Below are positions 4,317-29,560 of a stretch of 32,000 nucleotides of DNA, piece by piece. The stretch is from Desulfocapsa sulfexigens DSM 10523 (GTDB lineage Bacteria; Desulfobacterota; Desulfobulbia; Desulfobulbales; Desulfocapsaceae): positions 900,001 through 932,000 of the forward strand of contig NC_020304.1 of assembly GCF_000341395.1 (NCBI RefSeq), given 5' to 3'. The stretch's first letter is position 1; every line of letters begins with the position of its first letter. The notes below the pieces were generated by a model that worked only from the letters and a program-made list of their open reading frames with translations, was not told where the DNA came from and searched no databases. Position numbers and translations under genes: made by a program.

Positions 4317-4757
4317 TTAAGCTTGGATATTAACCGGGGAATAATCCTCTGGATCCTCCTCCTGCTCCCCAAACATATCCATCAATGTCGAGAAGGAATC
4401 ATTTTCCGCATTTGATTGATAGGCAGCATGGGATTGCAAAGATGCTGCCCCGCTTCGAAGACCTCCCGTCTTCTCCTGAATTTCTCTCATCATGGATTCC
4501 ATTTCACCCCTATCCATCAGCCCGTCATTATTGGCATCATAGGTCTTTGCTACCTCCGCCACGTTCATTGTCTGGCCTGTCATCCCAGACATTTTGTCGG
4601 CCATTGTCTGGAGTTCAGCCTGATCAATAGCGCCGTTTTTGTCGGCGTCAAGCTTGTTAAATCGTCCTTCAGCTCCTTTCCCTTGCCCTTGCCGTGCGCC
4701 CTGCGCCTGCTGCATATTAGCAAAAGAATAACTATACGATCCACTTATTCCGTTCAT
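4317..4757 (-). CDS. EF-hand calcium-binding protein (two canonical loops), 146 aa, no signal peptide, acidic C-terminus
   Basis: The loops are DADKNGAIDQAE (aa 37-48) and DANNDGLMDRGE (aa 74-85), both fitting D-x-[DN]-x-[DN]-G-x-[IM]-D-x-x-E. AGGAG RBS lies before ATG 4757, so the track start at 4841 is an unlikely extension. Confidence 0.8.
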   Translation of the reverse strand: MNGISGSYSYSFANMQQAQGARQGQGKGAEGRFNKLDADKNGAIDQAELQTMADKMSGMTGQTMNVAEVAKTYDANNDGLMDRGEMESMMREIQEKTGGLRSGAASLQSHAAYQSNAENDSFSTLMDMFGEQEEDPEDYSPVNIQA

Positions 4758-4910
4758 CGTAATGACTCCTTTTTTGGTTATGGAGATGATGAAAGAGAGG
4801 ATGTCCGTTTCCAATCTCCTGTAAAAGCATTCCTCTATCAACTGTACATGGAGATAGTTTTATCTCCACTGATATTCAAATCGGGCTGGAATCTAATTTT
4901 CTATAGCTTC

Positions 4911-6694: not shown

Positions 6695-7303
6695 ATGGTA
6701 ACCCAGAGCAAACATCTTCCGGCAGAAGAGCGCCGTACAGTAACTGTCGAAGCCGTGATTGAGTTGGCTGCAGAACAAAATCCGAATGATATCACTACAT
6801 CTGCTATTGCTGCCCGTATGGGATTGACACAGGGCGCTCTGTTTCGACACTTTCCCAGTAAGGCAGCCATTCTCCAGGCAGTGATGGAATGGGTGGCCGA
6901 GCGACTGCTGACAAGGTTGGATAAGGCCATACAGGAGGCCCCATCGCCACTCGCCTCTCTTGAAGCCATGTTCATGGCCCATGTGCTGTTTGTAGCTGAA
7001 CATCCTGGCGTTCCCCGCATTCTGTTTGGCGAGTTGCAGCATTCTGAAAAAACCGCTTCCAAGATGATGGTACAGGCACTCATCAAGCATTATGGCGAAC
7101 GCCTTCACCGGTTGCTCAAAGAGGGAAAAATACTAAAAGAACTGGACGCTGATCTCGACATAGAGGCGGCTGCCACTCTCTTTATCGGCACCATTCAGGG
7201 GCTCATAATGCAATCACTCCTGGCAGGTGATGTGGATCATATTCGTCGTGATGCACCGAGGGTTTTCAATATCTATCGTCGTGGCATAAGGAGCATGCAA
7301 TGA
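6695..7303 (+). CDS. TetR-family transcriptional regulator
   Basis: N-terminal HTH is TTSAIAARMGLTQGALFRHFPSKAAIL. It is the first gene of the operon and overlaps the next gene by ATGA. Confidence 0.9.
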   Translation: MVTQSKHLPAEERRTVTVEAVIELAAEQNPNDITTSAIAARMGLTQGALFRHFPSKAAILQAVMEWVAERLLTRLDKAIQEAPSPLASLEAMFMAHVLFVAEHPGVPRILFGELQHSEKTASKMMVQALIKHYGERLHRLLKEGKILKELDADLDIEAAATLFIGTIQGLIMQSLLAGDVDHIRRDAPRVFNIYRRGIRSMQ

Positions 7304-8451
7304 AAAAATTCCCCATACAAGGACGTACCCTGGCACTGGTGGTGGTAATTTTGCCACTCCTGGCTCTCTTTATCTATGTCGCTTTGCGTTCAGGGCCGCT
7401 GGCCCCTGTACCAGTGACCGTGACCACGGTAAAGAAACAGAGCATTACACCTGCACTCTTTGGCATCGGTAATGTCGAGGCTCAATACACCTACAAGATC
7501 GGTCCGACCTTTGTGGGGCGCCTGAAACACCTCGATGTTCAAGTTGGAGATCTTGTTAAGGCCGGGCAGGTACTTGGCGTAATGGACCCCGTTGATCTTG
7601 ACGACAGAATCCACGCTCAAGATTTCGCAGTGAAGCGCGCCAATGCCCAGTTGAGTGAAGCCAAGGCCAGGCAGACTTATGCGCTAACGCAGGCTCAACG
7701 GTATGAACAATTACTGGCCGCGCGATCAACCAGTGAGGAAAGCGTTGCTACTAAAAATCATGAACTTGATGTGGCTGCGGCAGCTTTAAAGGCAGCCTCT
7801 GAGGAACTCGATCGTGTCCAGTCTGAACGCGATGCCCTGATAGCCCAACGCAACAATCTGAAACTTGTCGCCCCGACTGATGCACTGGTCGCCCTGCGCA
7901 ATGTTGACCCAGGTACGACAATCGTGGCTGGCCAGGCAGTGGTAGAGCTGGTCGATCCCCTAAAAATGTGGGTTAATGTGCGCTTTGATCAAATTCACTC
8001 AGGTGGAGTAGCAGCCAATCTGCCAGCCCAGATCGTACTCCGCTCTCAGTCGGAAAAAGTTCTAGGGGGTCGAGTGATACGGGTTGAACCATTGGCCGAT
8101 GCCGTGACTGAGGAAACCCTGGCTAAGGTGGTGTTCAATCAGCGTCCTGAGCCACTGCCGCCAATAGGTGAACTGGCCGAAATAACAGTGTTTTTACTGC
8201 CACTCCCAGCTGCACCAATTATTCCCAACGCAGCCATCCAGCGAATCGATGGCCGATTGGGGGTATGGCAGGTAAAAAATGGTGATCTGCACTTCACACC
8301 GGTCTCACTCGGTGTTGCTGATCTGGAGGGTCATGTGCAGGTTCGCGAGGGACTCAATAATGGAGACCAAATCGTGGTTTATAGTGCAAAGTCCTTGACA
8401 GCAGGCACCCGCATTGATGTTGTTGATCACATCCCTGGTGTAAAGCCATGA
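7300..8451 (+). CDS. Efflux periplasmic adaptor (membrane fusion protein, HlyD/MacA-like)
   Basis: N-terminal TM anchor, lipoyl-like GDLVKAGQVLGVMD, a coiled-coil hairpin, and LKLVAPTDALVA plus beta-barrel domains. Confidence 0.9.
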   Translation: MKKFPIQGRTLALVVVILPLLALFIYVALRSGPLAPVPVTVTTVKKQSITPALFGIGNVEAQYTYKIGPTFVGRLKHLDVQVGDLVKAGQVLGVMDPVDLDDRIHAQDFAVKRANAQLSEAKARQTYALTQAQRYEQLLAARSTSEESVATKNHELDVAAAALKAASEELDRVQSERDALIAQRNNLKLVAPTDALVALRNVDPGTTIVAGQAVVELVDPLKMWVNVRFDQIHSGGVAANLPAQIVLRSQSEKVLGGRVIRVEPLADAVTEETLAKVVFNQRPEPLPPIGELAEITVFLLPLPAAPIIPNAAIQRIDGRLGVWQVKNGDLHFTPVSLGVADLEGHVQVREGLNNGDQIVVYSAKSLTAGTRIDVVDHIPGVKP

Positions 8452-9653
8452 TCAGCCTTGCGGGACGCGACATCATGCATGCCTGGGGCAAATTCGTTTT
8501 TACCGGTGTCGGCCTTGGGCTGCTTATCGGCGTGACACTGTCCATGGCTGGGATTTATCGAGGCATGGTGGATGATGCCAAGGTGCTTCTTGACAACAGT
8601 GGCGCTGATCTCTGGGTTGTTCAACAAGACACCCTCGGTCCCTATGCTGAACCGTCAAGCATCTACGATGACGCCTGGCGCTCCATTCGTGGCATGCCTG
8701 GCGTTGTAAGGACTGCCAATGTTACCTATCTTACCATGCAGGTTAAGCAAGGCGAACGAGATGTACGAACCATGGTTACCGGCATCACTCCCGGAGAGCC
8801 CGGTACCCCCGGATGGCCCCCATATCTCGTCGCCGGTCGCCAGATCACCCGTGGCCATTACGAGGCCGTGGCGGATATCGCCTCCGGATTTAAGCTTGGC
8901 GATAAGCTCCAGATCCGCCGCAACTACTACACTGTGGTTGGCTTGACCAGGAGAATGGTCTCTTCTAATGGTGATCCAATGGTATTCATCCCACTCAAGG
9001 ATGCTCAGGAGGCCCAATTTCTCAAGGACAATGACGCCATCCACCAGCAACGGCGTCGCACCACTGCCAACCCGGCATTCAATCAACCGAACGTTCCAGG
9101 TTTACTCGATGCGATCATCGCCACCCAAAGCATCAATCCTTACGTTAATGCAGTACTGGTGCAGCTTGAAACGGGCCACAACCCTGATATTGTGGCAGAA
9201 TCGATCCGCCGTTGGAAACGCTTGACAGTCTACACGCGCAGCCAGATGGAGGAAATACTCGTTGGTAAACTCATTGCCACTGCGGCAAAACAGATATTCA
9301 TGTTTCTGGTTATTCTTTCGGTTGTCAGCTCAGCTATTGTTGCTTTCATTATCTACACTCTGACCCTTGGCAAGATACGCGAAATTGCCGTGCTGAAATT
9401 AATCGGCACTAAAAACCGGACCATTGTCGCTTTGATTATGCAACAGTCTGTTGCTCTAGGCATGATTGGTTTTGTCGTAGGAAAAATCACAGCCACTTTA
9501 CTGATGGCACCGTTTTTTCCTAAATATGTCCTTTTGGAGCCCCTCGACTCGGTCGTCGGTTTTGCCGCCGTAGTGCTGATATGCATTCTGTCGAGCGTTA
9601 TCGCCATTCGTGCTGCTCTCAAGGTCGATCCGGCTGAGGCCATTGGGGGTTGA
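8448..9653 (+). CDS. ABC transporter permease, FtsX/MacB-type with a large periplasmic domain
   Basis: TM1, then an approximately 240-aa periplasmic domain, then three C-terminal TMs carrying the FtsX signature region (REIAVLKLIGTKNRTIVALIMQQSVALGMIGFVVG). Confidence 0.9.
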   Translation: MISLAGRDIMHAWGKFVFTGVGLGLLIGVTLSMAGIYRGMVDDAKVLLDNSGADLWVVQQDTLGPYAEPSSIYDDAWRSIRGMPGVVRTANVTYLTMQVKQGERDVRTMVTGITPGEPGTPGWPPYLVAGRQITRGHYEAVADIASGFKLGDKLQIRRNYYTVVGLTRRMVSSNGDPMVFIPLKDAQEAQFLKDNDAIHQQRRRTTANPAFNQPNVPGLLDAIIATQSINPYVNAVLVQLETGHNPDIVAESIRRWKRLTVYTRSQMEEILVGKLIATAAKQIFMFLVILSVVSSAIVAFIIYTLTLGKIREIAVLKLIGTKNRTIVALIMQQSVALGMIGFVVGKITATLLMAPFFPKYVLLEPLDSVVGFAAVVLICILSSVIAIRAALKVDPAEAIGG

Positions 9654-9654
9654 T

Positions 9655-10362
9655 ATGGGTTATAAAGGTATTCAAATCGAAGGATTAAAAAAACGTTATG
9701 GCAACGGAGAAACCGCCGTAGATGCCCTTAAAAAGGTAGATATGCATGTGGCCCCAGGTGAAGTGGTCGGTCTGATCGGACCGTCAGGATCAGGCAAAAG
9801 TACGTTGCTGAAATCCCTCGGAGCGGTGATCGAACCCACTGCCGGGCGAATGATTCTTGGAGATGAGGTCATTTATGACGATGGCTGGAAAGTGAAGGAT
9901 TTGCGCGCCCTGCGCCGCGATAAAATTGGTTTTGTCTTCCAGGCTCCGTATCTCATTCCTTTCCTCGATGTAACCGACAACATCGCATTGCTCCCCATGC
10001 TTGCAGGTGTGCCAAATGGTGAAGCACGTGAGCGGGCAATAGAGTTACTAAAAGCCCTTGATGTGGAACATCGTGCCAAGGCCATGCCATCCCAACTCTC
10101 GGGAGGTGAGCAGCAGAGGGTAGCCATTGCCCGGGGCTTGATTAACCGCCCACCGGTAATTCTAGCCGACGAGCCTACGGCACCTCTCGACAGCGAACGG
10201 GCACTGGCTGTCATTCGTATTTTAAACGATATGGCTCACCAGTACGAAACGGCTATCATCATAGTCACCCATGATGAAAAAATCATCCCGACCTTCAAAC
10301 GCATCTATCATATCCGTGATGGCGTAACCTACGAGGAAGCCGGAGAAGGTCGCGATTTTTAG
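9655..10362 (+). CDS. ABC transporter ATP-binding protein (MacB/LolD-like, separate polypeptide)
   Basis: Walker A is GPSGSGKST, the signature is LSGGEQQR, Walker B is ILADEPT, and the H-loop is VTHD. ATG 9655 lies 1 nt after the permease stop. Confidence 0.95.
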
Positions 10363-10395
10363 TGAAAGCAGAGCAAGAGAGGCTCACAACTACCA

Positions 10396-10860
10396 ATGAA
10401 ATACAAACAAGCTATCAAAACAATCGGTGCTGTCAGTACGATTGGGACATCGTTGCTGCTCGCTGGCATTATGGCTTTGGCTGATACCAACACGAAGGCA
10501 GGGCCGCTCACTCTTGTAAAGATCATGCAAGACCAGGGCATGTATATGGAGAAAATTACCGCAGGTATTATTCGTGAAGATTGGCAACAGGTGTCAGAAA
10601 GTGCACTGCGGATTGCCGGCCATCCTCAGCCGCCGCTGACCGAGAAGATCCGTATCCTTGGTTTTGTCGGTTCGGATGTCAACACGTATAAGAACTACGA
10701 CAAGAAAACCAGCCAGGCAGGTCAGGAACTCAGTCAAGCAGCTGAGCGCCAGGATGGAATACTGGTGGTTTCTGCCTTTGCAACTTTGCAAACCAGTTGC
10801 CTTTCCTGTCATCAGCATTTTCGCATACCGTTTCAGGAGTATTTTTATGAGCATCGTTAA
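10396..10860 (+). CDS. Class II cytochrome c (cytochrome c'-like), periplasmic
   Basis: Signal peptide, mostly helical sequence, and a single CLSCHQHFR heme motif 15 residues from the C-terminus (the pattern C-x-x-C-H-x-x-[FY]-R is typical of cytochrome c'). Confidence 0.75.
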   Translation: MKYKQAIKTIGAVSTIGTSLLLAGIMALADTNTKAGPLTLVKIMQDQGMYMEKITAGIIREDWQQVSESALRIAGHPQPPLTEKIRILGFVGSDVNTYKNYDKKTSQAGQELSQAAERQDGILVVSAFATLQTSCLSCHQHFRIPFQEYFYEHR

Positions 10861-12280
10861 AACAATAACTGGCCACATCTTCACTGCATCTATCATTGCC
10901 GGCCTGCTGGCTGCTTGTTCGATTGGCCCGGATTTCAAGCGCCCCCAATCTCCTAAGGTGGAGAATTACACCCCCACTCCAATAAACCTTGGAGGATCAC
11001 AGCGTATCAGCGAGGACGGCCTGGTCAATCAACAATGGTGGCATGAGCTCGGCTCAGCAAAGCTAAACGCCCTGATCGATGAAGCCTTGCAAGCTAACCC
11101 CACACTGATTGGTTATCAGGCTACGCTACGCCAGGCCGATGAACTGTATGCTGCCCAGGCTGGCTCGAGCCTGTATCCCCAGCTTGGTGCCAACGTAGGT
11201 GGCCAGCGGCTGCGCTCTAATCCCGGCATTTTATCAGGGCAGAGTGGTGATACCCAGGAATTCAGTATTTACAACACCAGTGTCGGCGTTCAGTACACCT
11301 TCGACCTGGTCGGCGGTAACCGACGCGCCTTGGAGTCCCTGGCCGCCAAGGTTGATTATCAACGCTTCCAACTTGAAGGAGCCAGACTGACGCTAACAAC
11401 TCATATTGTTACAACCGCTGTCACTCAGGCCAAGCTTGCTGGTCAAATCCAGGCCACAGAGGCCATCCTTCAGTCCCAGGAAGAACAGATGGAGCTGACC
11501 AGAGAGCGTGTACGTCTTGGCCAGGCCGATCGAGATGATGTCCTGGCCTTGCAAGTCCAGGTAGAACAGACCCGTGCCAGTATTCCACCCTTGCGGAATC
11601 AACTTCAGCAAAACGAGCACCTGCTTGCTGTACTCACCGGTCGGGCTCCAGGGAACGGAGAAGGACCATCCTTCTCCCTTCACGAATTCACTCTGCCGGC
11701 TGATCTGCCCCTAACCGTCCCCTCCGTACTGGTTCGCACCCGCCCCGACATTCTGGCTGCCGAAGCCCTGCTGCATGCGGCCAATGCAGAATACGGTGTG
11801 GCTATTGCCCAGCTTTACCCCCAACTCACCCTCAGCGCCAATCTTGGTTCACAGGCCTTAACCACCAGTGCGTTGTTTGGCAGCAACTCAGCTATTTGGA
11901 GTCTGGTCGGACAGCTGACGCAACCCCTGTTTAATCCGGGATTACCAGCACAAAAACGGGCAGCCCTGGCTGCATTCGATGCAGCGGCGGCCAGTTACCA
12001 AAATGTAGTGCTCGAATCGTTACGTAATGTGGCTGATGTGCTGCGTGCCTTGGATAACGATACTCAAAGGTTGACTTCCCTTTCCGCTGTCGATGTGGCA
12101 ACGCAGGAATCGTTGGAATCCATCCGGCGACAATATGCCCTTGGAGCCGTGAGCTATGTCGGTCTACTCATTGCACAACAGCAGGCACAACAGGTACGAG
12201 TAGCTCTGGTCGAGGCGCAGGCACAACGCCTTATCGATAGTGCCGCCTTCTATCAAGCCATGGGTGGAAATGAAGGATGA
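10847..12280 (+). CDS. Efflux outer-membrane factor lipoprotein (NodT/OprM family)
   Basis: CAGGAG RBS lies before ATG 10847. Lipobox is LLAAC. FKRP, RPDILAAEALL and two repeated TolC-like halves are present. The track start at 10658 runs through the cytochrome gene and is rejected. Confidence 0.9.
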   Translation: MSIVKTITGHIFTASIIAGLLAACSIGPDFKRPQSPKVENYTPTPINLGGSQRISEDGLVNQQWWHELGSAKLNALIDEALQANPTLIGYQATLRQADELYAAQAGSSLYPQLGANVGGQRLRSNPGILSGQSGDTQEFSIYNTSVGVQYTFDLVGGNRRALESLAAKVDYQRFQLEGARLTLTTHIVTTAVTQAKLAGQIQATEAILQSQEEQMELTRERVRLGQADRDDVLALQVQVEQTRASIPPLRNQLQQNEHLLAVLTGRAPGNGEGPSFSLHEFTLPADLPLTVPSVLVRTRPDILAAEALLHAANAEYGVAIAQLYPQLTLSANLGSQALTTSALFGSNSAIWSLVGQLTQPLFNPGLPAQKRAALAAFDAAAASYQNVVLESLRNVADVLRALDNDTQRLTSLSAVDVATQESLESIRRQYALGAVSYVGLLIAQQQAQQVRVALVEAQAQRLIDSAAFYQAMGGNEG

Positions 12281-19819: not shown

Positions 19820-20788
19820 TTATCCTCTCCCTCCTTCCCGTCCCATCACCAGATATAATAACGCCATCCGTACGGCCACACCGTTAGTCACCTGTTCCAG
19901 GATCACAGACCCCTTTCCGTCAGCGACGTCCGGATTCATCTCCACACCACGATTAATAGGGCCGGGGTGCATAACCAGCACATCGGGGCGAGCATGTTTT
20001 TGAAGCAGATTATGGTTAATGCCATAAAACTGGGAATACTCACGAAGCGAAGGAATCAAGGGATCATCCTGACGTTCCCGCTGAATACGAAGAGCCATTA
20101 CAACATCGGCATCTGTCACTGCCTCGACAATGGAGCCACAAACTCTTGCGCCAAGTGCATCAAGTCCAGGAACCATAAACGTCTCAGGGCCTGCAACTCT
20201 TACTTCTGCACCAAGCTTTGTAAAACCGAGAATATCAGAATGAGCGACTCTGCTGTGGGCTATGTCCCCGACAATGGCAATTTTCAGTCCTTCTACGGTT
20301 CCCCTGTGTTCACGAACTGTCATCATATCAAGAAGTGCCTGACTGGGGTGTTCATGAGTTCCGTCTCCAGCATTAATAATTGAAGCCTCTACATGACGGG
20401 CAAGAAGACCAGGTGCACCGGAGCTACCATGCCTGACGATTATAGTATCAGGATTCATGGCCTGGAGATTACGGGCCGTATCAATCAGCGTTTCACCTTT
20501 AGTGGCAGAACTGGTGGATGCAGCAATATTAAAGGTATCTGCACTCATACGTTTCGCCGCTATCTCAAAGGAGAGTCGTGTCCTGGTGGAAGGTTCAAAG
20601 AAAAAATTAATAATAGTCTTTCCCTTCAGGGTGGGAACTTTTTTGATGGAACGGCTGGATATCTCTTTAAAGGAAATCGCTGTATCCAGAATATGAAAGA
20701 TATCGGCAACAGATAGCTGTTCTATTCCAAGGATATGTTTATGCTTGAACTGATAGGCGTCTTTCACGTTTTTTGTACTCACCCTCAA
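19820..20788 (-). CDS. pyrB: Aspartate carbamoyltransferase catalytic subunit
   Basis: [15 protein letters not shown] and HPGP motifs. The start codon is uncertain: either TTG at 20788 overlapping the lepB stop, or GTG at 20782. Confidence 0.93.
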
Positions 20789-21432
20789 TAGACAATGTTA
20801 CCAATCCGCCCCCAGCGAATGGAAGTAAAACGATCAACTGACATAAGCGGCTCATCAAGATCCCAGGACCAGTATAAAATAAAAGCCTTTCCAAGGACAT
20901 CCTTTAACGGAACAAAGCCCCAGAACCTACTGTCATAGCTGTTATCACGATTATCCCCCATAACAAACAGGGTACCTTCGGGAACTTTTACCGGCCCCAT
21001 ATTATCTCGAGGCCCTGTACCTGCGGCCATAACAGTGCTTTCGGTGAAATGGGCGTGGGGATTAGTAATAGGTTCTCCATTCAAAAAGAGTTGTTTGTCT
21101 TTCACTTCAACAATATCACCGGCAATGCCGACAACCCTTTTTATATAATCAATAGAGCGATCTTTTGGAAAGCGAAAGACCACGACATCGTCACGTTCAG
21201 GACTTTTCCAGGGAATAAGCACGTTTCCCGTCATGGGGATCTTAACCCCATAGATAAATTTATTTACCAATAAATGGTCACCAATCTGAAGAGTTGGCAA
21301 CATGGAACCGGAAGGAATCTTAAAAGCCTGGACAATAAAGCTCCGAATAAAGAGAGCAAGTATAATAGCTATGATAATCGCTTCAACGTACTCGCGAACA
21401 ACTGATTTTTGGGGCTTTTGACTACTCAGCAC
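20785..21432 (-). CDS. lepB: Signal peptidase I
   Basis: SGSMLPTL (catalytic Ser), YIKRVVG (catalytic Lys) and [14 protein letters not shown] motifs. GTG 21432 is preferred because a GGGAG RBS sits 6 nt upstream. The track start at 21477 is also GTG but has no RBS. Confidence 0.9.
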
Positions 21433-21714
21433 TGGAAACTCCCATAAAGAGACATTAAAATAACCTGACAACCACACAATGAAACAAAACTACTCGAAAG
21501 TAAGACCAATTTCAAGACACCCTACAAAGAGTTGTCACATATAAAATAAAATCAATACCTTCAGCCAGCGCACCTCAGGAGACTACACCACATAGTGAGC
21601 CACGCCTAGGCAGAATACCTATATATAGTACAAAATGACACAATCAATGGTCTTCCCATTATTTAACTACCTGTTTTAGCAACAAGAAAATATCGGCTTT
21701 TATATCACCACTCC

Positions 21715-21830: not shown

Positions 21831-22889
21831 ATGAATCTGCCTTTCTTTTCCAGTGAAGACCTTGTTGTCGGTATTGATATCGGCTCCCATGCAATAAAGG
21901 TCTGCCAGCTTAAACGAACCGACAAGGCTTACGCCGTGGTTAATCTGGGTAGCGCAACACTCCCGGAAGGGGCAGTCGATGATGGTACCCTGAACGATTC
22001 TGAAATTGTCGGTAAAACAATAGCCGAACTATTTAAAAGTTTAAAAATAAAGAAGAAAAAAATTGGTTTCTCCATCTCAGGCTATTCAGTTATAGTAAAA
22101 AAGGTTAACCTTGCGGTTATGTCAGAAGAACAACTGGAAGAGCATATTCAGTCTGAAGCAGAACAATATATTCCCTTTGATATTGATGACGTTTACCTTG
22201 ATTTCCAGGATCTTAAAACCAACAGGGAAGATAGTGACAGGACCGATGTCATGCTGGTGGCTGCTAAAAAAGAAATTGTTGATGACTACCTGGAAATGTT
22301 CGAGGATCTGGACCTCAGACCTGTGATCGTTGACGTCGATGGTTTCGCACTGGAAAACACATACGAATACAACTACCCGAAGGATGAAAATGTTGCACTG
22401 GTAGACATTGGCGCGTCCAAGATGAACATCAACATTATCTCCAATGGTATTTCCGTTGTTGCCCGAGACATCGTTGTTGGCAGCCACCAATTGACAGAAC
22501 AGATCCAGGCAGCTTTTGATCTTGAGTTCGAGGAGGCTGAAGCCCTGAAACTTGGCCACATCCCGGCAGAAGAAAAACAGGAAGAGATTGCAGATATCTT
22601 TTCAACGACTTGTACCCAATGGGTGCTTGAAATTAAGAAAGCAATTGATCTTTACCATGCAAACCATTCGGACTCACCTCTAACACGTCTGGTTCTGAGT
22701 GGCGGTGGCTCAAAAGTTTCGGGTCTTATTGATTTTCTTTCCAATGAGACTGGTATATCAGTGGAACTGTTTAACCCTTTTGGTAATATGACCGTCAATG
22801 AGAATAAAATTGATCCGGATTATCTGAAAAACATTGGCCCGGAAATGGCAATTGCAACAGGGATTGCCATCCGTCCATCAGTTATATAG
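21831..22889 (+). CDS. pilM: Type IV pilus assembly protein PilM (actin-like ATPase fold)
   Basis: VGIDIGSHAIKV phosphate-1 motif, VDIGASKMNI and LSGGGS. The length of 352 aa is typical. Confidence 0.9.
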   Translation: MNLPFFSSEDLVVGIDIGSHAIKVCQLKRTDKAYAVVNLGSATLPEGAVDDGTLNDSEIVGKTIAELFKSLKIKKKKIGFSISGYSVIVKKVNLAVMSEEQLEEHIQSEAEQYIPFDIDDVYLDFQDLKTNREDSDRTDVMLVAAKKEIVDDYLEMFEDLDLRPVIVDVDGFALENTYEYNYPKDENVALVDIGASKMNINIISNGISVVARDIVVGSHQLTEQIQAAFDLEFEEAEALKLGHIPAEEKQEEIADIFSTTCTQWVLEIKKAIDLYHANHSDSPLTRLVLSGGGSKVSGLIDFLSNETGISVELFNPFGNMTVNENKIDPDYLKNIGPEMAIATGIAIRPSVI

Positions 22890-22898
22890 GCTGAAATT

Positions 22899-23471
22899 AT
22901 GCTAAGAATTAACCTCCTTCCCATACGTCAGCTGAAAAAACGCGCCAAGGCGCGTAATCAGATAATAAGTTTCCTCACCCTGCTTATTTTTCTCTTTCTT
23001 ATTTTAGGGACTGTCAGTTTTTTACAAAGCACTCAAATAAAAAACATTGAATCATCGATTGCAGAACTGAAGAGAGAGAAGCAACAGTATGCTCCTATTC
23101 TTGCAGAGATGAAAAAACTTGAGCAGACTAAAAAAGATCTTGAAAACAAAATAGGCATTATTAAAAAGCTCAGAAGAGACTCAGCCATAACGGTCCATAT
23201 CCTGGATGAAGTGGCAAAAAAAGTCGATTCCAAACGAATGTGGCTCAAATCGTTAAAGCAGCAGGGAGCTAATCTGTCCTTAACGGGAGTGGCACTGGAC
23301 AACCAAACTATTGCCCAATTCATGGATGCCCTGAAAGACTCTCCATACATCAGTGAGGTAAATCTTTCAAACGCATCTCTGGCAAAAGTTTCTGGTCGGG
23401 ATTTAAAAAGCTTTTCACTGGCTTGTGACATCGTCAGTCCGCCAGAAGAAAGTCAGAAAAAAGCTAACTAG
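22899..23471 (+). CDS. pilN: Type IV pilus assembly protein PilN
   Basis: The N-terminus MLRINLLP is conserved in PilN. It has a single TM, a coiled coil and a ferredoxin-like C-terminus. Confidence 0.85.
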   Translation: MLRINLLPIRQLKKRAKARNQIISFLTLLIFLFLILGTVSFLQSTQIKNIESSIAELKREKQQYAPILAEMKKLEQTKKDLENKIGIIKKLRRDSAITVHILDEVAKKVDSKRMWLKSLKQQGANLSLTGVALDNQTIAQFMDALKDSPYISEVNLSNASLAKVSGRDLKSFSLACDIVSPPEESQKKAN

Positions 23472-23495
23472 AACTCAGAATAAACACTGCGGTAT

Positions 23496-24134
23496 ATGAA
23501 AAAGACTAACGCATTCGCGACCTTTATAGACGAGAAATACATCCCGCTTGACAAAAAGCTGAAAATTGCTTTGGCGGTTATTCTCTTTTTACTTCCAGTG
23601 GTTCTCTTTTATTTTTTGTGGCTTCAACCACACTACAAAAACCATGCCCGTCTGACACAGCAGAAGGCTGCAATGACTCAAGAACTCCAGAAAGCGAAGG
23701 CAAAAGCTGCAAACAAGGGCAAATTGCAAGCTGAACTCGATGCCACCGAGGAACTTTTTGCAGAAACTGCAACACTGCTTCCAAAAGAAAAGGAAATCCC
23801 AAGTCTTTTGACAAATATTTCAGCTTTGGGCCGCGGATCTGGACTGGACTTTCTCACCTTCAAACCAAATGCTGATATCCCCAGAGATTTCTATTCTGAG
23901 ATTCCAGTTGACATCAAGGTTCGTGGTCCTTACCACAATATGGGAATTTTCCTGAATCAGGTGAGCAAGCTGGATCGAATAGTGACAGTGGCAAACATTA
24001 ACATGGGGGGTCCTAAAAAAGAGGGCTCAGAAATGCTTCTCAATTCAAGTTGCCGCCTGGTTACTTACCAATTTACCAATGTACAGATCAGCAAACAAGA
24101 AGACCCGAAGAAAAAGCGCAAAAAACGCAGATAA
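23496..24134 (+). CDS. pilO: Type IV pilus assembly protein PilO
   Basis: Single TM, coiled coil, LLP.E.EIPSLL and the I.V.G.YH....F motif. It has a poly-Lys/Arg tail. Confidence 0.85.
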   Translation: MKKTNAFATFIDEKYIPLDKKLKIALAVILFLLPVVLFYFLWLQPHYKNHARLTQQKAAMTQELQKAKAKAANKGKLQAELDATEELFAETATLLPKEKEIPSLLTNISALGRGSGLDFLTFKPNADIPRDFYSEIPVDIKVRGPYHNMGIFLNQVSKLDRIVTVANINMGGPKKEGSEMLLNSSCRLVTYQFTNVQISKQEDPKKKRKKRR

Positions 24135-24148
24135 CAGACTGTCAGCCT

Positions 24149-24682
24149 ATGAAAACATCATTCTTAAACACAAGGCCACATTTAGCCAAATCATTAACAT
24201 TTTTATTATTGGGAACAATGCCCATCAGTTCAACGGCACTTGCACTTCCTGTTTCTTCACCCCAGGAAAATCCAACCCAACTGACCTTAGCCTCACCCGG
24301 ACAATCGCCGGAAGCATTTTTTGAATACCGCATTGAAAATAGACCCGATCCTTTCCAGCCTTTTATCTCAGAAAAAGCCACATCAGCAAATATTAATGAA
24401 ATTCTACCGGTTGACGAACAATTATCAGGTATGCAATTGTTTGAGCCAGGACAGTTAAATCTTGTCGCAATAGTCATGACAGGGGATAACGATTTTGCGA
24501 TGGCTGAAGATACAACAGGAAAGGGATATATTCTCCGTACAGGAATGAAAATTGGAAAGCGCGGAATCGTCACCGCCATTCAAACCAACGAAGTCAAGAT
24601 TGAAGAAACTGCTTTTACCAGAGCTGGCAAAAAACTAACAAGCAAAATTGTGATGCTCCTCAAGAAAGAGGGAGAAGAATAA
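24149..24682 (+). CDS. pilP: PilP-like periplasmic protein
   Basis: Signal peptide (..SSTALA/LP), the RPDPFQPF motif, and a C-terminal beta-domain (L.LVAIV..G....A...D..GKGYILR.G.KIGK.G.V..I). It has no lipobox. ATG 24149 is preferred over the track start at 24050, which overlaps pilO. Confidence 0.75.
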   Translation: MKTSFLNTRPHLAKSLTFLLLGTMPISSTALALPVSSPQENPTQLTLASPGQSPEAFFEYRIENRPDPFQPFISEKATSANINEILPVDEQLSGMQLFEPGQLNLVAIVMTGDNDFAMAEDTTGKGYILRTGMKIGKRGIVTAIQTNEVKIEETAFTRAGKKLTSKIVMLLKKEGEE

Positions 24683-24685
24683 ACA

Positions 24686-26611
24686 ATGCATACAAAACTT
24701 TCCACGTACTATTTGGCCATTTGCTGTTCACTTTTCCTTCTCCTGACACATTCCGTTCAGGCAGCAGAAACGGGTGTTTACTCAATTCAGAACATTGAAG
24801 CAGATGTACAGGACAACAGCCTGCTCATGGTGCTGAAAGGTGACAGTCCTCCTGCATACACCATGTATGAACTTTTTTCTCCTGCCCGGCTGGTTGTAGA
24901 TATTGCCGATGCTAATTTGAATGAATCTATAGACCTGGCTGAAATTATCCCGGCAAATGATTTCACCACCATAACAATCACTACCCTCAAGGATAAAAGT
25001 CCATCTATTACCCGCTTTGAAATGACCCTTGCGGACAGTCACACCTATAAAGTTGAGCGGGTAGAAAATGACCTTACAATTCGTCTTTTTCCACAGGATA
25101 CAACTGGTACAACAGAACTCAAAGCTGACAAAAATATTGATGCAACTGCCCCCCCCGCACTTCACGACATTGTTGTACGAAAAGATGACAACCAGACCGA
25201 GATCCTCTTTCAGGCAGACCAGGCAATTGAGGATTATAGAGAAGATACCGTAACAGGGCGTGACGGCCTTCCTGATTCCATGTATATCGATATCAACAAT
25301 GTAAATGGTTCCGAATTAATACGTGAAAAAAACATAGGAACAAGCCTTTCTAAAATTCGTGTTGCAACCAGGGGTTCCGGAGTTCGAGTGGTATTTGATG
25401 CAGCCCCTGAAGGACTATTTTCCTATGACATCAAAACAGTTCCACAGGGTTTACTGGTAACCATTAACGAAAAAGGACAACAACAGAATGCTCCAGAGTC
25501 AGTTCCGGCTCCCGAAGAACTCAAAGATAACTCAATAAGTGCTGAAGCGATTACTTCAGATCCAACCCTTGATGCGCTTATAGATTCCTCGGAAGCCGCC
25601 TTGACGCAGAAATCACTAATATCTGAAGAAAATGTGACGGCCGCCGAGGCTATGCAGGATTCATTTGAATTCTCAGGCTACAAGGCAACTCGTATCAGTG
25701 TTGATTTTTACAAAATAGACCTCCATAATGTCTTCAGACTTTTTCGTCAGATCAGTGGTATCAACCTTATCGTCGATGAATCCGTAAACGGTTCTTTAAC
25801 CCTTGCCCTCAATGATGTCCCATGGGATTTTGCTCTCGACATTATATTGAACTTAAAAGATCTAAAAAAAGAAGAACGGCATAATACTGTTGTTATTTAT
25901 CCAGCAAAAAAAGAGTTCGCATGGCCAGAACGTGCGTCTGACAACCTCTCCTTTGAGGCGGACGCTGAAGTCATAGAACAGGAAGCTCTGATCATCCAGC
26001 AGTCAACTAACCAACCCGCAGAAATTATGCAGGCAAAGGAATTACTTCGCAGGGCAAAAATTGAGGAACAAAATAACGACCTCGAAGACGCAGTCAGGTT
26101 ATATGAGCAAGCATTTGCCCTATGGCCCGAAAATGCGAAAATTTCTAACCGACTTGCCGCTCTATACCTTGTTGATCTCAAAATATATGCCAAAGCTATT
26201 CATTTTGCCAAGGAAACACTCAAGATCAATAAAAACGATTATCAGGCAGCGTTGTATGGTGCTATTGCCTCAGCCAACATGGATCAGGTTTCAGAAGCAA
26301 TGGAATATTTCGCACAAAGCATAAGCGGCACCCCACCAATGAAGGAAGCACTTATCAGTTACGCTGCTTTCAGTGAAAAGAAAGAACAACCTGAAGCGGC
26401 ACTGAAACTTCTTAACAAGTACGCAGAAAATTACAGCGATACAGTTGAAACCATGATTTCAAGGGCCAGACTCTATGACACCATGGGACAAACACAAAAA
26501 GCAACAGAGCAGTACAAGTCGTTGTTGTATTCTGGTTATCAGCTGGTTCCAGGGTTGAAGAAATATATCCGCGGCCGATTAGCCATGAAAGACAATCAGA
26601 TTGTTCAATAA
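24686..26611 (+). CDS. Secreted AMIN-AMIN-(secretin N0-like)-TPR protein; carries no secretin barrel
   Basis: The signal peptide is ..THSVQA/AETG. Two AMIN-like repeats cover about aa 30-135 and 157-265 (..PARLVVDIADANL.. and ..SMYIDINNVNG..). The N0-like block FSGYKATRISVDFYKIDLHNVFRLFRQISGINLIVDESVNGSLTLALNDVPWDFALDIILN covers about nt 25664-25912. TPR-like helices cover about nt 26020-26560 (..AVRLYEQAFALWPENAKISNRLAALYL..). Confidence 0.8.
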   Translation: MHTKLSTYYLAICCSLFLLLTHSVQAAETGVYSIQNIEADVQDNSLLMVLKGDSPPAYTMYELFSPARLVVDIADANLNESIDLAEIIPANDFTTITITTLKDKSPSITRFEMTLADSHTYKVERVENDLTIRLFPQDTTGTTELKADKNIDATAPPALHDIVVRKDDNQTEILFQADQAIEDYREDTVTGRDGLPDSMYIDINNVNGSELIREKNIGTSLSKIRVATRGSGVRVVFDAAPEGLFSYDIKTVPQGLLVTINEKGQQQNAPESVPAPEELKDNSISAEAITSDPTLDALIDSSEAALTQKSLISEENVTAAEAMQDSFEFSGYKATRISVDFYKIDLHNVFRLFRQISGINLIVDESVNGSLTLALNDVPWDFALDIILNLKDLKKEERHNTVVIYPAKKEFAWPERASDNLSFEADAEVIEQEALIIQQSTNQPAEIMQAKELLRRAKIEEQNNDLEDAVRLYEQAFALWPENAKISNRLAALYLVDLKIYAKAIHFAKETLKINKNDYQAALYGAIASANMDQVSEAMEYFAQSISGTPPMKEALISYAAFSEKKEQPEAALKLLNKYAENYSDTVETMISRARLYDTMGQTQKATEQYKSLLYSGYQLVPGLKKYIRGRLAMKDNQIVQ

Positions 26612-26670
26612 TTCAGAATTCTATAGAAATGAGACCAAAACTTTCTTTTTCAATGCCCAAGGGGTTTTCC

Positions 26671-28443
26671 ATGAAGCTTCAAACATCAATGCTGCAGTTA
26701 AGCTGCCTTCTTCTTCTTTCCTTCTCCGTTGCCTCCTGCATACCTGACAAGGGCGAACCTGAAGTAGACCTTCCGGAGGCACCTCCAGTCCCGGTCGAGA
26801 CGGTTGAAGAACAAACTCAACTCCCTGTACAGTATCAGGCACCTTCCTATATGGTTGACACCTCAAGCAGTGAAAGCATCGATGAAGTTGCTGATGATGT
26901 CATAATTAAAGTTGGGGCCTCTATTCGTTCCACCCAAGGTCCTCAACCGCTCTGGGATATTCTGAAGCGGCTTGCTGCCTTGAAAAAGATGAGCGTTTCG
27001 TGGGCAAGTGATGTTGACCAGAATGTGCTTGTTGATGTTGATATAAGCGCTGATGACGATTTCTACAGTGCTATTGACAACCTTCTGCGTCAGGTGGATT
27101 ATTACCATGAAATGAATGGTTCGACCATTGTGGTCCATTATAAAGAGACGAGACAATTCCACATTGCAATGCCCTTTACTAAACAGCTCTACGAAACTGC
27201 AACGGGTGGCAATGTCCTTGGCAGTAACGATGCTGCAAGTAATATTGAAGGAACTATTCGTTTGGATTCCAAGGGGAATGAATTCGATATCTGGAAAAAC
27301 ATTGAAGATAACATGAATGCTATCCTTGACACCTGGTCGACATCTGCAGTTACCTCGGTTCCGGAGAGCACTCCTGCAGAAAATGAGGACACAGCTGATA
27401 CTACCCCAAGCAAGGCAACCAAGCAGGTTTCTGCTTCTGGTAACAAATACACCATAGACAAACCTGTTGGTCTGATTACTGTCCATGCACCACGACCACT
27501 TCTGGATAAGCTTGAACTCTATTTTAAGAATCTTAAGAGAGAATTATATAAACAGGTTTCCATCGAAGCTAAGGTTATTGAAGTCCAATTAACTGACTCC
27601 TCGTCTATTGGCCTCAACTGGAACATGCTATTAAAAAATCTCACGGTTGGTGCTAGTTACAGTGGTGCCAAAACCCGTTCGGATTCAGACAGTAATACCA
27701 ATACCGCTTCAAGCGATTGGGGGAGGGATTATAATGACACTACCAACAGAGACACCGATATTGACGGGCTAACCACATCCACCCGTGCGGTAACTGATAC
27801 CATAACATCAGTTGGATCGTTGGCAGCTTCCACAACAGATACCATTACCCACCTCATTACTGAAGGAGGTGGAGCCGCCATATCACTTGCCGCATTTACC
27901 ATGGATACCTTCCTGAATGCCGTTAAAGAGCAGGGACAAACGACCATACTCTCAAACCCAAAACTCAGTGTCTTGAATGGGCAGCCTGCACTTATTACCG
28001 TGGGAAGAAATGTCACATACATAGACAGCATTGAATCTGATGTCAACAATGACACCGGAACGGTTTCCTACACCGTAGAGACCGAACGGGTTCTATCTGG
28101 AGTCGGCCTTGCACTGACCGCAAACATCCTCGAAGATAATGAAATCATTCTCAACTTGGTTCCAGTCACCTCCGAACTTGAAGAACCCATTGAATACAGA
28201 GATGTTGGTCTTGGCCAGGTTGGATTGCCGATCATTAATGTCAGGGAAATGAGTACAACAGTCCGGGTCAGAGATGGGGAAATGCTGGTTATTGGTGGGC
28301 TAATTTCAAATGTTGAAGACAATGGCGGAACATTTGTACCAGGAACCAGCAATATTCCATTTTTCAAATACTTCTTTGGCTACGAAGAAAAAATAAGCAG
28401 AAAAAGAGAGCTTATAATCTTACTTAGACCACGAATTATATAA
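26671..28443 (+). CDS. Secretin-family outer-membrane channel, lipoprotein type (MshL/PilQ-like)
   Basis: Its own RBS (AAGGGG) and a signal peptide with lipobox VASC. An N0-like domain is present (PLWDILKRLAALKKMSVSWASDV...). The secretin core is VSIEAKVIEVQL..SIGLNW ... ILSNPKLSVLNGQPALITVG ... GLPIINVREMSTTVRVRDGEMLVIGGLI ... IPFFKYFFG....R.ELIILLRPRII. Confidence 0.9.
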   Translation: MKLQTSMLQLSCLLLLSFSVASCIPDKGEPEVDLPEAPPVPVETVEEQTQLPVQYQAPSYMVDTSSSESIDEVADDVIIKVGASIRSTQGPQPLWDILKRLAALKKMSVSWASDVDQNVLVDVDISADDDFYSAIDNLLRQVDYYHEMNGSTIVVHYKETRQFHIAMPFTKQLYETATGGNVLGSNDAASNIEGTIRLDSKGNEFDIWKNIEDNMNAILDTWSTSAVTSVPESTPAENEDTADTTPSKATKQVSASGNKYTIDKPVGLITVHAPRPLLDKLELYFKNLKRELYKQVSIEAKVIEVQLTDSSSIGLNWNMLLKNLTVGASYSGAKTRSDSDSNTNTASSDWGRDYNDTTNRDTDIDGLTTSTRAVTDTITSVGSLAASTTDTITHLITEGGGAAISLAAFTMDTFLNAVKEQGQTTILSNPKLSVLNGQPALITVGRNVTYIDSIESDVNNDTGTVSYTVETERVLSGVGLALTANILEDNEIILNLVPVTSELEEPIEYRDVGLGQVGLPIINVREMSTTVRVRDGEMLVIGGLISNVEDNGGTFVPGTSNIPFFKYFFGYEEKISRKRELIILLRPRII

Positions 28444-28499
28444 AAAATTTCAATCAACTTTAATACCACGATTCAATAAGAATTTTCAGGGAGAAAATT

Positions 28500-29489
28500 A
28501 TGCAGAAGTTAAAATACATACTTTATCTGCTCTCAGCCGTACTCGTTATGGGTTGCGGCAATACGGTTGTGGAGACCCTCTATGTTGCGGATCCTCCAAA
28601 TCCCAATGCTCCTGGTAAAGGACAGACTATTGTCATCCTTCCTTTCGCCGACTATACCAGTGCTGACTCCATCGCAGGTGCATACAGAAGGAACCTGGCA
28701 GTCACTGAGGCAATAACGGACAGACTAGTTGCCAACGGCTTTAGCCTTGCTATCCAGGAAGACGTATTCGGATATCTTGTCGCTGAAGAAATCGTCAGCG
28801 TCATTCCATATGATGAAAACAGAACAGCCAGTTTATCCGAAGAACTGAACAATGAATGGTCGGAATTGATGAAAAGTCACTTAAGGACGTATATTCAAGA
28901 CCAGAAAATGCGTTCAGGTGAAACTGTTTCAGGAAGCCCAGGGACCCATGCCCTTGACCAGAAAGCCGTTGCGAAAATAGGCCGTCAATTTAATGCCGAT
29001 TACATTGTTCGTGGGCGACTCCTTGAGTTTAAAACCCGAGAAGAGAATACGTGGATACCATGGAAAAAAGGTCTGCTTCCATTTACTTTGGGGTTAAGTA
29101 GCCAGACACTGAATGGTTTTGCTCGTTCTGACACATATGATGACTGGGGGCATATGCTTCTTCCAGGAACCCTGGGTGCCATCACAGGGTATAATGCCGA
29201 CACACTCGGATTTGACAATAACGTTGGTGGTGGTGTGGTGTGGGGAGCTGTTGGTGCAGGTGCTGGACACATGGCAAAAAATGGCGGCCAGGTTGATCAG
29301 GCCGTAGTTCAGATGCGTATTTGGGTACAGGAGGCAGCCACTGGAAATCTTGTCTGGACAAACAGAGTTGATGTCAAGGTATCACCTGAATCCGTATATG
29401 CCGATCGTCAATATGATATGCTCTTTGACAAAGCAATACATAAAGGTGTCAACACCCTTATTGATAACTTTGTTCAGTATGGATTATAA
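28500..29489 (+). CDS. Lipoprotein with a CsgG/HfaB- or LpoB-like domain and a glycine-zipper insert
   Basis: AGGGAG RBS and lipobox VMGC. By eye, IVILPFADYT.., ..ADYIVRGRLLEF.., ..DQAVVQMRIWVQEAATGNLVW.. and ..AIHKGVNTLIDNF align with CsgG blocks (VSVYNIQDETG; IMVEGSIIGYE; DQIAVNLRVVNVSTGEIL; AIETGVIFLIND). It also has GGGVVWGAVGAGAGHMAKNGG at nt 29226-29288. Confidence 0.7.
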   Translation: MQKLKYILYLLSAVLVMGCGNTVVETLYVADPPNPNAPGKGQTIVILPFADYTSADSIAGAYRRNLAVTEAITDRLVANGFSLAIQEDVFGYLVAEEIVSVIPYDENRTASLSEELNNEWSELMKSHLRTYIQDQKMRSGETVSGSPGTHALDQKAVAKIGRQFNADYIVRGRLLEFKTREENTWIPWKKGLLPFTLGLSSQTLNGFARSDTYDDWGHMLLPGTLGAITGYNADTLGFDNNVGGGVVWGAVGAGAGHMAKNGGQVDQAVVQMRIWVQEAATGNLVWTNRVDVKVSPESVYADRQYDMLFDKAIHKGVNTLIDNFVQYGL

Positions 29490-29513
29490 GATTCATATCT
29501 GATATTCTCCCGC

Positions 29514-29560
29514 AAAAAAAGGCTCTTAATGCAAACTGCATTAAGAGCCTTTTTTCTTTT
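29514..29560. terminator. Bidirectional rho-independent terminator shared by the pil operon (+) and secB (-)
   Basis: A 13-bp perfect stem, GGCTCTTAATGCA (29521-29533) with TGCATTAAGAGCC (29537-29549), and a 3-nt loop. It is flanked by A7 upstream and TTTTTTCTTTT downstream. Confidence 0.85.

Follow-up and report, generated by a model that had tools for sequence, protein, structure and literature searches.

How can a type IV pilus operon work when the periplasmic front of PilQ and the secretin pore are encoded by different genes? The question is raised by a locus of Desulfocapsa sulfexigens DSM 10523, analysed here in a window of 32,000 nt (positions 900,001 to 932,000 of the forward strand of NC_020304.1). 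An open reading frame (ORF) at 24686..26611 on its + strand had been read in the initial annotation as a PilQ-like N-terminal module, two AMIN domains and an N0 domain, detached from the barrel and fused to an array of tetratricopeptide repeats (TPRs). In model organisms a single PilQ chain forms the pore, docks PilP (through N0) and is targeted to peptidoglycan (through AMIN), and the TPR pilotin is a lipoprotein of its own. The proposed architecture was confirmed by Pfam, by matches to solved structures in the PDB and to the PilQ profile TIGR02515, and by an AlphaFold2 model, and the protein is secreted. Its parts are listed below with the evidence for each; model confidence is given as the predicted local distance difference test (pLDDT).

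24686..24763, + strand: signal peptide, residues 1-26, signal peptidase I type with VQA/AE cleavage (sequence; AlphaFold2 helix 8-24)
24773..25096, + strand: AMIN1, residues 30-137 (Pfam AMIN E=1.4e-9 on residues 42-125; β-sandwich, pLDDT ~85-90)
25154..25471, + strand: AMIN2, residues 157-262 (Pfam AMIN 21.6 bits; β-sandwich, pLDDT ~90)
25472..25672, + strand: linker, residues 263-329, poorly conserved and probably disordered (pLDDT <50; identity 20-65% among homologues)
25673..25915, + strand: PilQ-type N0 (STN) domain, residues 330-410, best conserved region of the protein (matches to 4ar0, 3jc8 and TIGR02515)
25916..26017, + strand: conserved segment after N0, residues 411-444 (identity 50-97%; the alignment to the PilQ profile continues to position 105)
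26018..26611, + strand: TPR array, residues 445-641, about six TPR motifs, and stop codon (pLDDT 90-97; TPR Pfam families)

The signal peptide contained no lipobox ([LVI][ASTVI][GAS]C), and no conserved cysteine was present in the N-terminus of the family. AlphaFold2, run on the monomer with a 34-sequence alignment, built two β-sandwiches from residues 32-136 and 158-261 (pLDDT ~85-94), and the top match of the model in a Foldseek search of the PDB was Myxococcus xanthus PilQ (3jc8_Qa). AMIN2 was missed when the whole protein was scanned with Pfam, the 21.6 bits (cut-off 20.5) being obtained with residues 157-262 alone; since hhalign detected no significant similarity between AMIN1 and AMIN2, the call of the second domain stands on a borderline Pfam score together with the fold. 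Pfam and NCBIfam scans of the ORF gave no match to the secretin domain (PF00263), in agreement with the earlier observation that the protein ends without one, and TIGR02515 scored 65 bits against a cut-off of 284.35, aligning over profile positions 2-105 only. No LysM or HR domain was matched in Pfam.

The N0 domain was identified from several alignments. Residues 330-411 aligned to the solved N0 domain of Neisseria meningitidis PilQ (4ar0, E=6e-15), residues 292-409 to residues 437-554 of M. xanthus PilQ (3jc8, E=9e-19), and the same region to TIGR02515 (positions 2-105, E=6e-18), whilst Pfam STN, at 28.1 bits, narrowly missed its cut-off of 28.4. All of the best matches in the PDB and NCBIfam were N0 domains of PilQ, 4av2 being a further member of the PDB list; no GspD N0 chain was found among the PDB matches, and the sole GspD_N0 match in Pfam was sub-threshold (E=0.0088). 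The TPR array, which gave many TPR matches in Pfam, was modelled as 13 helices over residues 427-640 (pLDDT >90). Foldseek matches included MamA, OGT and the pilotin PilW (2vq2, E=1.6e-6, TM score 0.67 on the target), the six-TPR, 13-helix shape being generic to TPR proteins.

The gene is the fifth of a seven-gene unit on the + strand that spans 21831-29555 and comprises pilM, pilN, pilO, a pilP-like gene, the AMIN-N0-TPR gene, a secretin gene and a gene for a 329-aa lipoprotein.

21831..22889, + strand: pilM, first gene of the operon (Pfam PilM_2 E=2.4e-77; TIGR01175 256.8 bits, over the cut-off)
22899..23471, + strand: pilN (Pfam PilN E=5e-20)
23496..24134, + strand: pilO (Pfam PilO E=2e-41)
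24149..24682, + strand: pilP-like gene, its real start an internal ATG (Pfam PilP 24.9 bits, cut-off 25.6)
24686..26611, + strand: AMIN-N0-TPR gene, 641 aa (ATG start, GAGGGAG upstream, TAA stop)
26671..28443, + strand: MshL-like lipoprotein secretin (Pfam Secretin E=2e-35; the listed ORF begins at 26629)
28500..29489, + strand: conserved lipoprotein of 329 aa, last gene of the operon (lipobox VMGC)
29515..29555, + strand: terminator-like hairpin with a 19-bp stem and a T run, ending the unit

A search of 5.8 billion proteins returned 1248 homologues at E<=1e-5, more than 100 of which were near-full-length (89-100% query coverage, mostly 600-660 aa) and shared the AMIN, STN and TPR matches in Pfam; an exhaustive search gave about 125 representatives of 50%-identity clusters at E<1e-30, with lengths of ~390-840 aa. 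Pfam scans of the representatives revealed that N0 and TPR form the constant part of the family and are preceded by 0, 1, 2 or 3 AMIN domains. For example, the one-AMIN homologues P0103-P0106, which are ~80% identical to the window protein in the N0-TPR part, cleanly lacked exactly AMIN2, and a subfamily of ~400 aa (237 matches at E<1e-10; with names indicating Dissulfuribacter, Dissulfuribacterales, Thermodesulfobacteria and unclassified 'Deltaproteobacteria') lacked AMIN domains altogether. In Dissulfuribacter thermophilus and a Thermodesulfobacteria metagenome-assembled genome, AMIN-less versions of 396-409 aa occupied the same place in a pilM-pilN-pilO-pilP-[N0-TPR]-secretin operon. Identity to the window protein was highest in N0 (79-98%), followed by the segment after N0 (50-97%), the TPR array (55-91%) and the AMIN domains (42-83%), and lowest in the linkers (0-65%). 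One distant metagenomic match, P0204 (998 aa), carried several STN/GspD-N0 domains, a fragmentary Secretin match, TPRs and DUF2135, and is a different, odd N0-rich architecture.

Gene order was equally constant. The seven-gene order was kept in all nine genome loci compared (9/9), the related ones being titled Desulfocapsa, Desulfocapsaceae and Desulfobulbaceae. Synteny was also scored in a sample of 80 metagenome loci, counting only those with enough flanking sequence; these come from close relatives (55-99% identity) and measure synteny, not taxonomic range. A secretin gene lay directly downstream of the target homologue in 48/48 loci, a pilP match lay upstream in 59/59, and the 329-aa lipoprotein gene followed the secretin in 39/39. 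The arrangement is thus real and conserved across the phylum, and its gene is genuinely separate from the secretin gene, to which it is tightly coupled by the conserved order. A frameshifted pilQ, already dismissed in the initial annotation, and a merger with the secretin gene through an assembly error were both rejected on the strength of the near-full-length homologues and the constant position of a separate secretin gene. The further idea that the protein is a functionless, decaying pilQ remnant or some other artefact of assembly or annotation is scarcely credible: pipelines of the Joint Genome Institute label homologues 'PilQ', which might hint at a truncated gene, but ORFs of similar length are intact in over 1000 homologues, N0 and TPR are strongly conserved and the operon position is kept across the phylum.

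The downstream secretin (Pfam Secretin on residues 431-604) is of another type. It was ranked by NCBIfam as MshL (TIGR02519, 247.3 bits against a cut-off of 250.2) ahead of GspD (128.5) and PilQ (110.2), its homologues are named MshL by their sources, and the top Foldseek match of its model was the BfpB liposecretin. M15 and K16 were invariant in 38 homologues and M15 is preceded by the Shine-Dalgarno-like motif AAGGGG, which suggests that translation probably starts at M15 (nt 26671) and not at 26629; that start leaves a gap of 59 nt behind the target gene. The lipobox cysteine, C37, was likewise invariant in the 38 homologues, including the versions from Dissulfuribacter and Thermodesulfobacteria. 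The next gene therefore has its own ribosome-binding site and lipoprotein signal, as had been noted, and because the lipobox cysteine is invariant the lipidated secretin may be self-piloted. Pfam scans of the secretin and its homologues found no AMIN domain. A conserved α/β domain was modelled at residues ~95-178 (pLDDT 70-78), its only Pfam match being a weak, sub-threshold one to TcpQ (E=0.004; such matches were given by 11 of the 38 homologues); the secretin monomer model was of low confidence (mean pLDDT 50), so that assignment of the N-terminal domain is weak. No similarity was detected by hhalign between the N0 domain of the target and either the N-terminal or the N3 domain of the secretin, which argues against a simple duplication. 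Judged from these profile and fold matches, the pair is not a clean fission of one pilQ, because the front half is PilQ-like but the pore is MshL- or type IVb-like. Between its N3-like and secretin domains the secretin also carries a Ser/Thr/Asp-rich insertion (residues ~340-415, nt ~27646-27873), predicted to be disordered, the length of which varies among homologues and which is missing in Dissulfuribacter and Thermodesulfobacteria.

With the domain make-up of the protein, the homology behind each domain, the conservation pattern and the invariant gene order as the firm ground, the mechanism that we propose, in which all binding is predicted, has about an even chance of being correct. The target protein would be a soluble, stoichiometric periplasmic adaptor in a pilus machine of type IVa-like design, two polypeptides sharing the work of a canonical PilQ. 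Its N0 domain would dock on the C-terminal domain of PilP and so join the PilMNOP alignment complex in the inner membrane with the complex in the outer membrane; docking as in PilQ is most plausible because this PilQ-type domain is better conserved than any other element and its gene comes directly after pilP. Berry et al. are said to have found in 2012 that PilP binds the N0 domain of PilQ, and PilP docking, missing from the initial annotation, is the most obvious role for such a domain encoded after pilP. The N-domains of PilQ contact inner-membrane components (PMC10653833). The six-TPR module, which has the size and shape of a pilotin, would bind the adjoining MshL-like lipoprotein secretin; the site would be the unfolded β-lip while the secretin assembles, or its N-terminal domain once the machine is complete. 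It is the likely secretin-binding end because its size and helix count equal those of type IVa pilotins, and six-TPR, 13-helix pilotins have been modelled as binding the secretin β-lip (PMC10653833). The two AMIN domains would hold the assembly on peptidoglycan and probably fix its place in the cell; in PilQ, AMIN domains bring the machine to peptidoglycan at the septum and the poles (PMC10653833; PMC5285504).

Being optional in the family, the AMIN domains would modulate anchoring or placement and would not be the defining function of the protein. The earlier proposal that the protein supplies in trans the AMIN function that the secretin lacks is hence upheld in part: peptidoglycan binding in trans is plausible because the secretin has no AMIN domain, but with an AMIN count of 0-3 it is not the core function of the family, because AMIN-less versions sit in operons of the same pilMNOP-X-secretin type and N0 is the best conserved part. 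Extended to the Thermodesulfobacteriota as a whole, the adaptor mechanism would mean that the PilP-docking N0 has shifted from the secretin to a dedicated periplasmic TPR protein, giving a three-tier complex of PilMNOP, an N0-TPR adaptor with 0-3 AMIN domains and a self-piloting liposecretin; such a previously undescribed coupling of secretin and inner membrane is put forward tentatively, at a little short of even likelihood.

Several results weigh against the adaptor mechanism. AlphaFold2 gave the target N0 no confident fold (pLDDT 30-45), so that the N0 assignment stands on sequence homology and not on the structure model; of the folds foreseen in the initial annotation, both AMIN sandwiches at residues ~30-265 were recovered, whereas N0 at ~326-405 was recovered by alignment but not as a fold. 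The failure is probably due to the near-invariance of N0 in the 34-sequence alignment. The stretch of low pLDDT (30-45) comprises residues 266-438 (nt 25481-25999) and holds the most conserved segment of the protein with its flanks. In addition, the N-terminal domain of the secretin is itself weakly N0-like (Foldseek E 2e-3 to 1e-2) and could be the partner of PilP in its stead; the N0-like domain that had been ascribed to the secretin thus received weak support from this and from the TcpQ match. Lastly, PilW was only the 49th entry in the Foldseek list of the target and the PilF/PilW/Tgl profile TIGR02521 scored 23.8 bits against a cut-off of 154 (E=2.7e-5), the likeness to TPR pilotins being generic. 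A classical pilotin identity was rejected on this score and on the missing lipobox, and the pilotin role in the strict sense that had been suggested earlier is not sustained, the secretin being itself lipidated.

The same TPR evidence can be turned to a different account, in which the protein is a transient assembly factor only: AMIN would find septal or polar peptidoglycan, TPR would chaperone secretin monomers into multimers, and the protein would then dissociate, merging two steps that M. xanthus divides between the AMIN domains of PilQ and the Tgl pilotin. The pilotin-sized module of 13 helices (PMC10653833), the weak matches to the PilW family and to PilW 2vq2, the invariant adjacency of the secretin and the precedent of peptidoglycan-binding, trans-acting secretin scaffolds in GspB/OutB (PMC9239104) are all consistent with it. 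It leaves unexplained, however, the conservation of a PilQ-type N0 above all other elements and the dispensability of AMIN in many lineages, and it suits poorly a protein that is not lipidated and a lipidated secretin that could be targeted to the outer membrane without need for a pilotin; we regard it as unlikely. The N0-like domain of the secretin, for its part, would allow PilP to dock on the secretin directly, the target then forming an accessory periplasmic ring or peptidoglycan collar around it in the manner of TsaP or FimV, which would stabilize the secretin in the cell wall, with its own N0 serving self-oligomerization or stacking on the ring of secretin N-domains and not the binding of PilP. 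The conserved α/β domain with weak N0 and TcpQ similarity, the AMIN domains of the target and the known stacked rings of secretin N-domains (PMC10653833) fit such an arrangement, but AMIN-less members of the family cannot serve as peptidoglycan collars and the target N0 is specifically PilQ-like and encoded after pilP, which makes a collar distinctly improbable. The adaptor mechanism, with N0 docked on PilP and TPR on the secretin, is accordingly kept as the preferred reading.

Around this pair of genes, the operon shows further features of its own. The PilP-like protein has a signal peptide of the signal peptidase I type and no cysteine at all and is therefore not a lipoprotein, unlike the PilP of Geobacter sulfurreducens, which is annotated 'pilus assembly lipoprotein PilP'; PilP is a lipoprotein in other model organisms. 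The 329-aa lipoprotein has a glycine-rich stretch near residues 240-265, its sole profile match in the Pfam and NCBIfam scans was a weak LpoB-like one, and a sequence search of the PDB gave no match. The AMIN-less operons, those of Dissulfuribacter and Thermodesulfobacteria, lacked its gene, and the protein could be a lineage-specific accessory factor for the secretin or for peptidoglycan. The operon is flanked by housekeeping genes on the opposite strand, lepB, pyrB and pyrC upstream and secB and uvrA downstream, and no other pilus genes were found in the remainder of the window. The signal peptidase I gene lepB (20785-21477, - strand) is also located ahead of pilM, on the other strand, in Dissulfuribacter and Thermodesulfobacteria (L010 1626-2273; L011 2307-2945), where lepA is placed between lepB and pilM, and this neighbourhood appears to be old and kept across the phylum. 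Elsewhere in the window, EF-hand calcium-binding motifs mark a small bacterial protein encoded at 4317-4841 (- strand; Pfam EF-hand_7, E=1.4e-9). On the + strand, 6695-12280 holds a TetR regulator gene and, behind it, a MacAB-type tripartite efflux set made up of an HlyD-family adaptor, an FtsX/MacB permease, an ABC ATPase and an OEP/TolC-like outer-membrane protein.

Compared with the model organisms, the parts of PilQ and pilotin are redistributed here, the pore being a lipoprotein and AMIN, N0 and TPR being united on a soluble protein. If the adaptor mechanism is true, the locus would be a natural experiment that dissects the functions of PilQ (gating and pore, docking, cell-wall anchoring), and coupling of the inner- and outer-membrane sub-complexes could work in trans. 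The number of AMIN domains, 0-3 among close relatives in a group that includes the Desulfobulbales, offers a handle on the evolution of pilus placement. The advance is incremental and not conceptual, as all of the domains are known and trans-acting secretin scaffolds have precedents. The architecture itself is item (v), AMIN+STN+TPR, in a 2008 list by de Souza et al., who guessed a role in outer-membrane transport and made no functional study (PMC2572700). The target corresponds to this item exactly, with AMIN domains, STN (borderline in Pfam, as given above) and TPR in one periplasmic protein; operon context, variable AMIN number and a partner liposecretin were not part of that paper. Literature searches on AMIN/STN/TPR in pili, on PilQ of cable bacteria and on MshL in Desulfobulb* returned nothing further after that paper.

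Amongst known systems, PilQ of M. xanthus, Pseudomonas aeruginosa and N. meningitidis resembles the target in its front half: it too starts with a signal peptide, followed by tandem AMIN domains and then a PilQ-type N0, and it is likewise encoded directly after pilP, behind pilMNOP. A canonical PilQ of 763 aa (P0248) aligned to target residues 25-422 with 31% identity. The target differs in lacking the N3 and secretin domains and in having a TPR array after N0, the pore being left to the separate MshL-like lipoprotein. A counterpart in Geobacter was rejected, pilMNOPQ (GSU2028-2032) having no intervening gene, and the split is not shared there. The MSHA pilus systems (MshL, MshM, MshN) resemble the locus in that MshL is the best-scoring model of the secretin, just short of its cut-off, and they encode a separate TPR protein. 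The neighbours here are of the pilM-N-O-P type, however, in place of mshM and mshI/J/K, and the TPR gene lies ahead of the secretin gene; the window contained no ExeA/MshM-like ATPase, the NCBIfam matches of the target included no MshN-named model, and a true MSHA operon was rejected on account of the missing mshM and the pilMNOP-type neighbours.

Other likenesses are more distant. PflA, a flagellar scaffold of Campylobacter which has been proposed to derive from pilus parts, also combines an AMIN-like β-sandwich with a following TPR superhelix (PMC11870540), but it has 17 TPRs, no N0 and a flagellar context, and its structure (9hmf_K, match 10 of the target in Foldseek) gave a global but poor alignment (root mean square deviation 35.6). 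In type II secretion, GspB/OutB (and ExeAB) provide a separate periplasmic protein that ties the secretin to peptidoglycan and the inner membrane and aids assembly (PMC9239104). The mechanism proposed for the target shares this logic, the domains being unrelated and the likeness functional only: GspB/OutB has an HR domain, which binds the N0 of the secretin, and a C-terminal extension, whereas the target itself carries N0, together with AMIN and TPR. The LysM or HR anchors of TsaP, FimV and GspB are similarly resembled by function only. With the pilotins PilF, PilW and Tgl the target shares about six TPRs, 13 helices and a length of ~200 aa (PMC10653833), and like them it is encoded together with a pilus secretin, on which it presumably acts; these pilotins are outer-membrane lipoproteins without AMIN or N0, whereas the target has no lipobox and carries both. 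The lipid anchor and the TPR have thus exchanged partners relative to Myxococcus, where a lipidated TPR pilotin serves an AMIN-bearing secretin: in D. sulfexigens it is the secretin that is lipidated and the TPR protein that bears AMIN.

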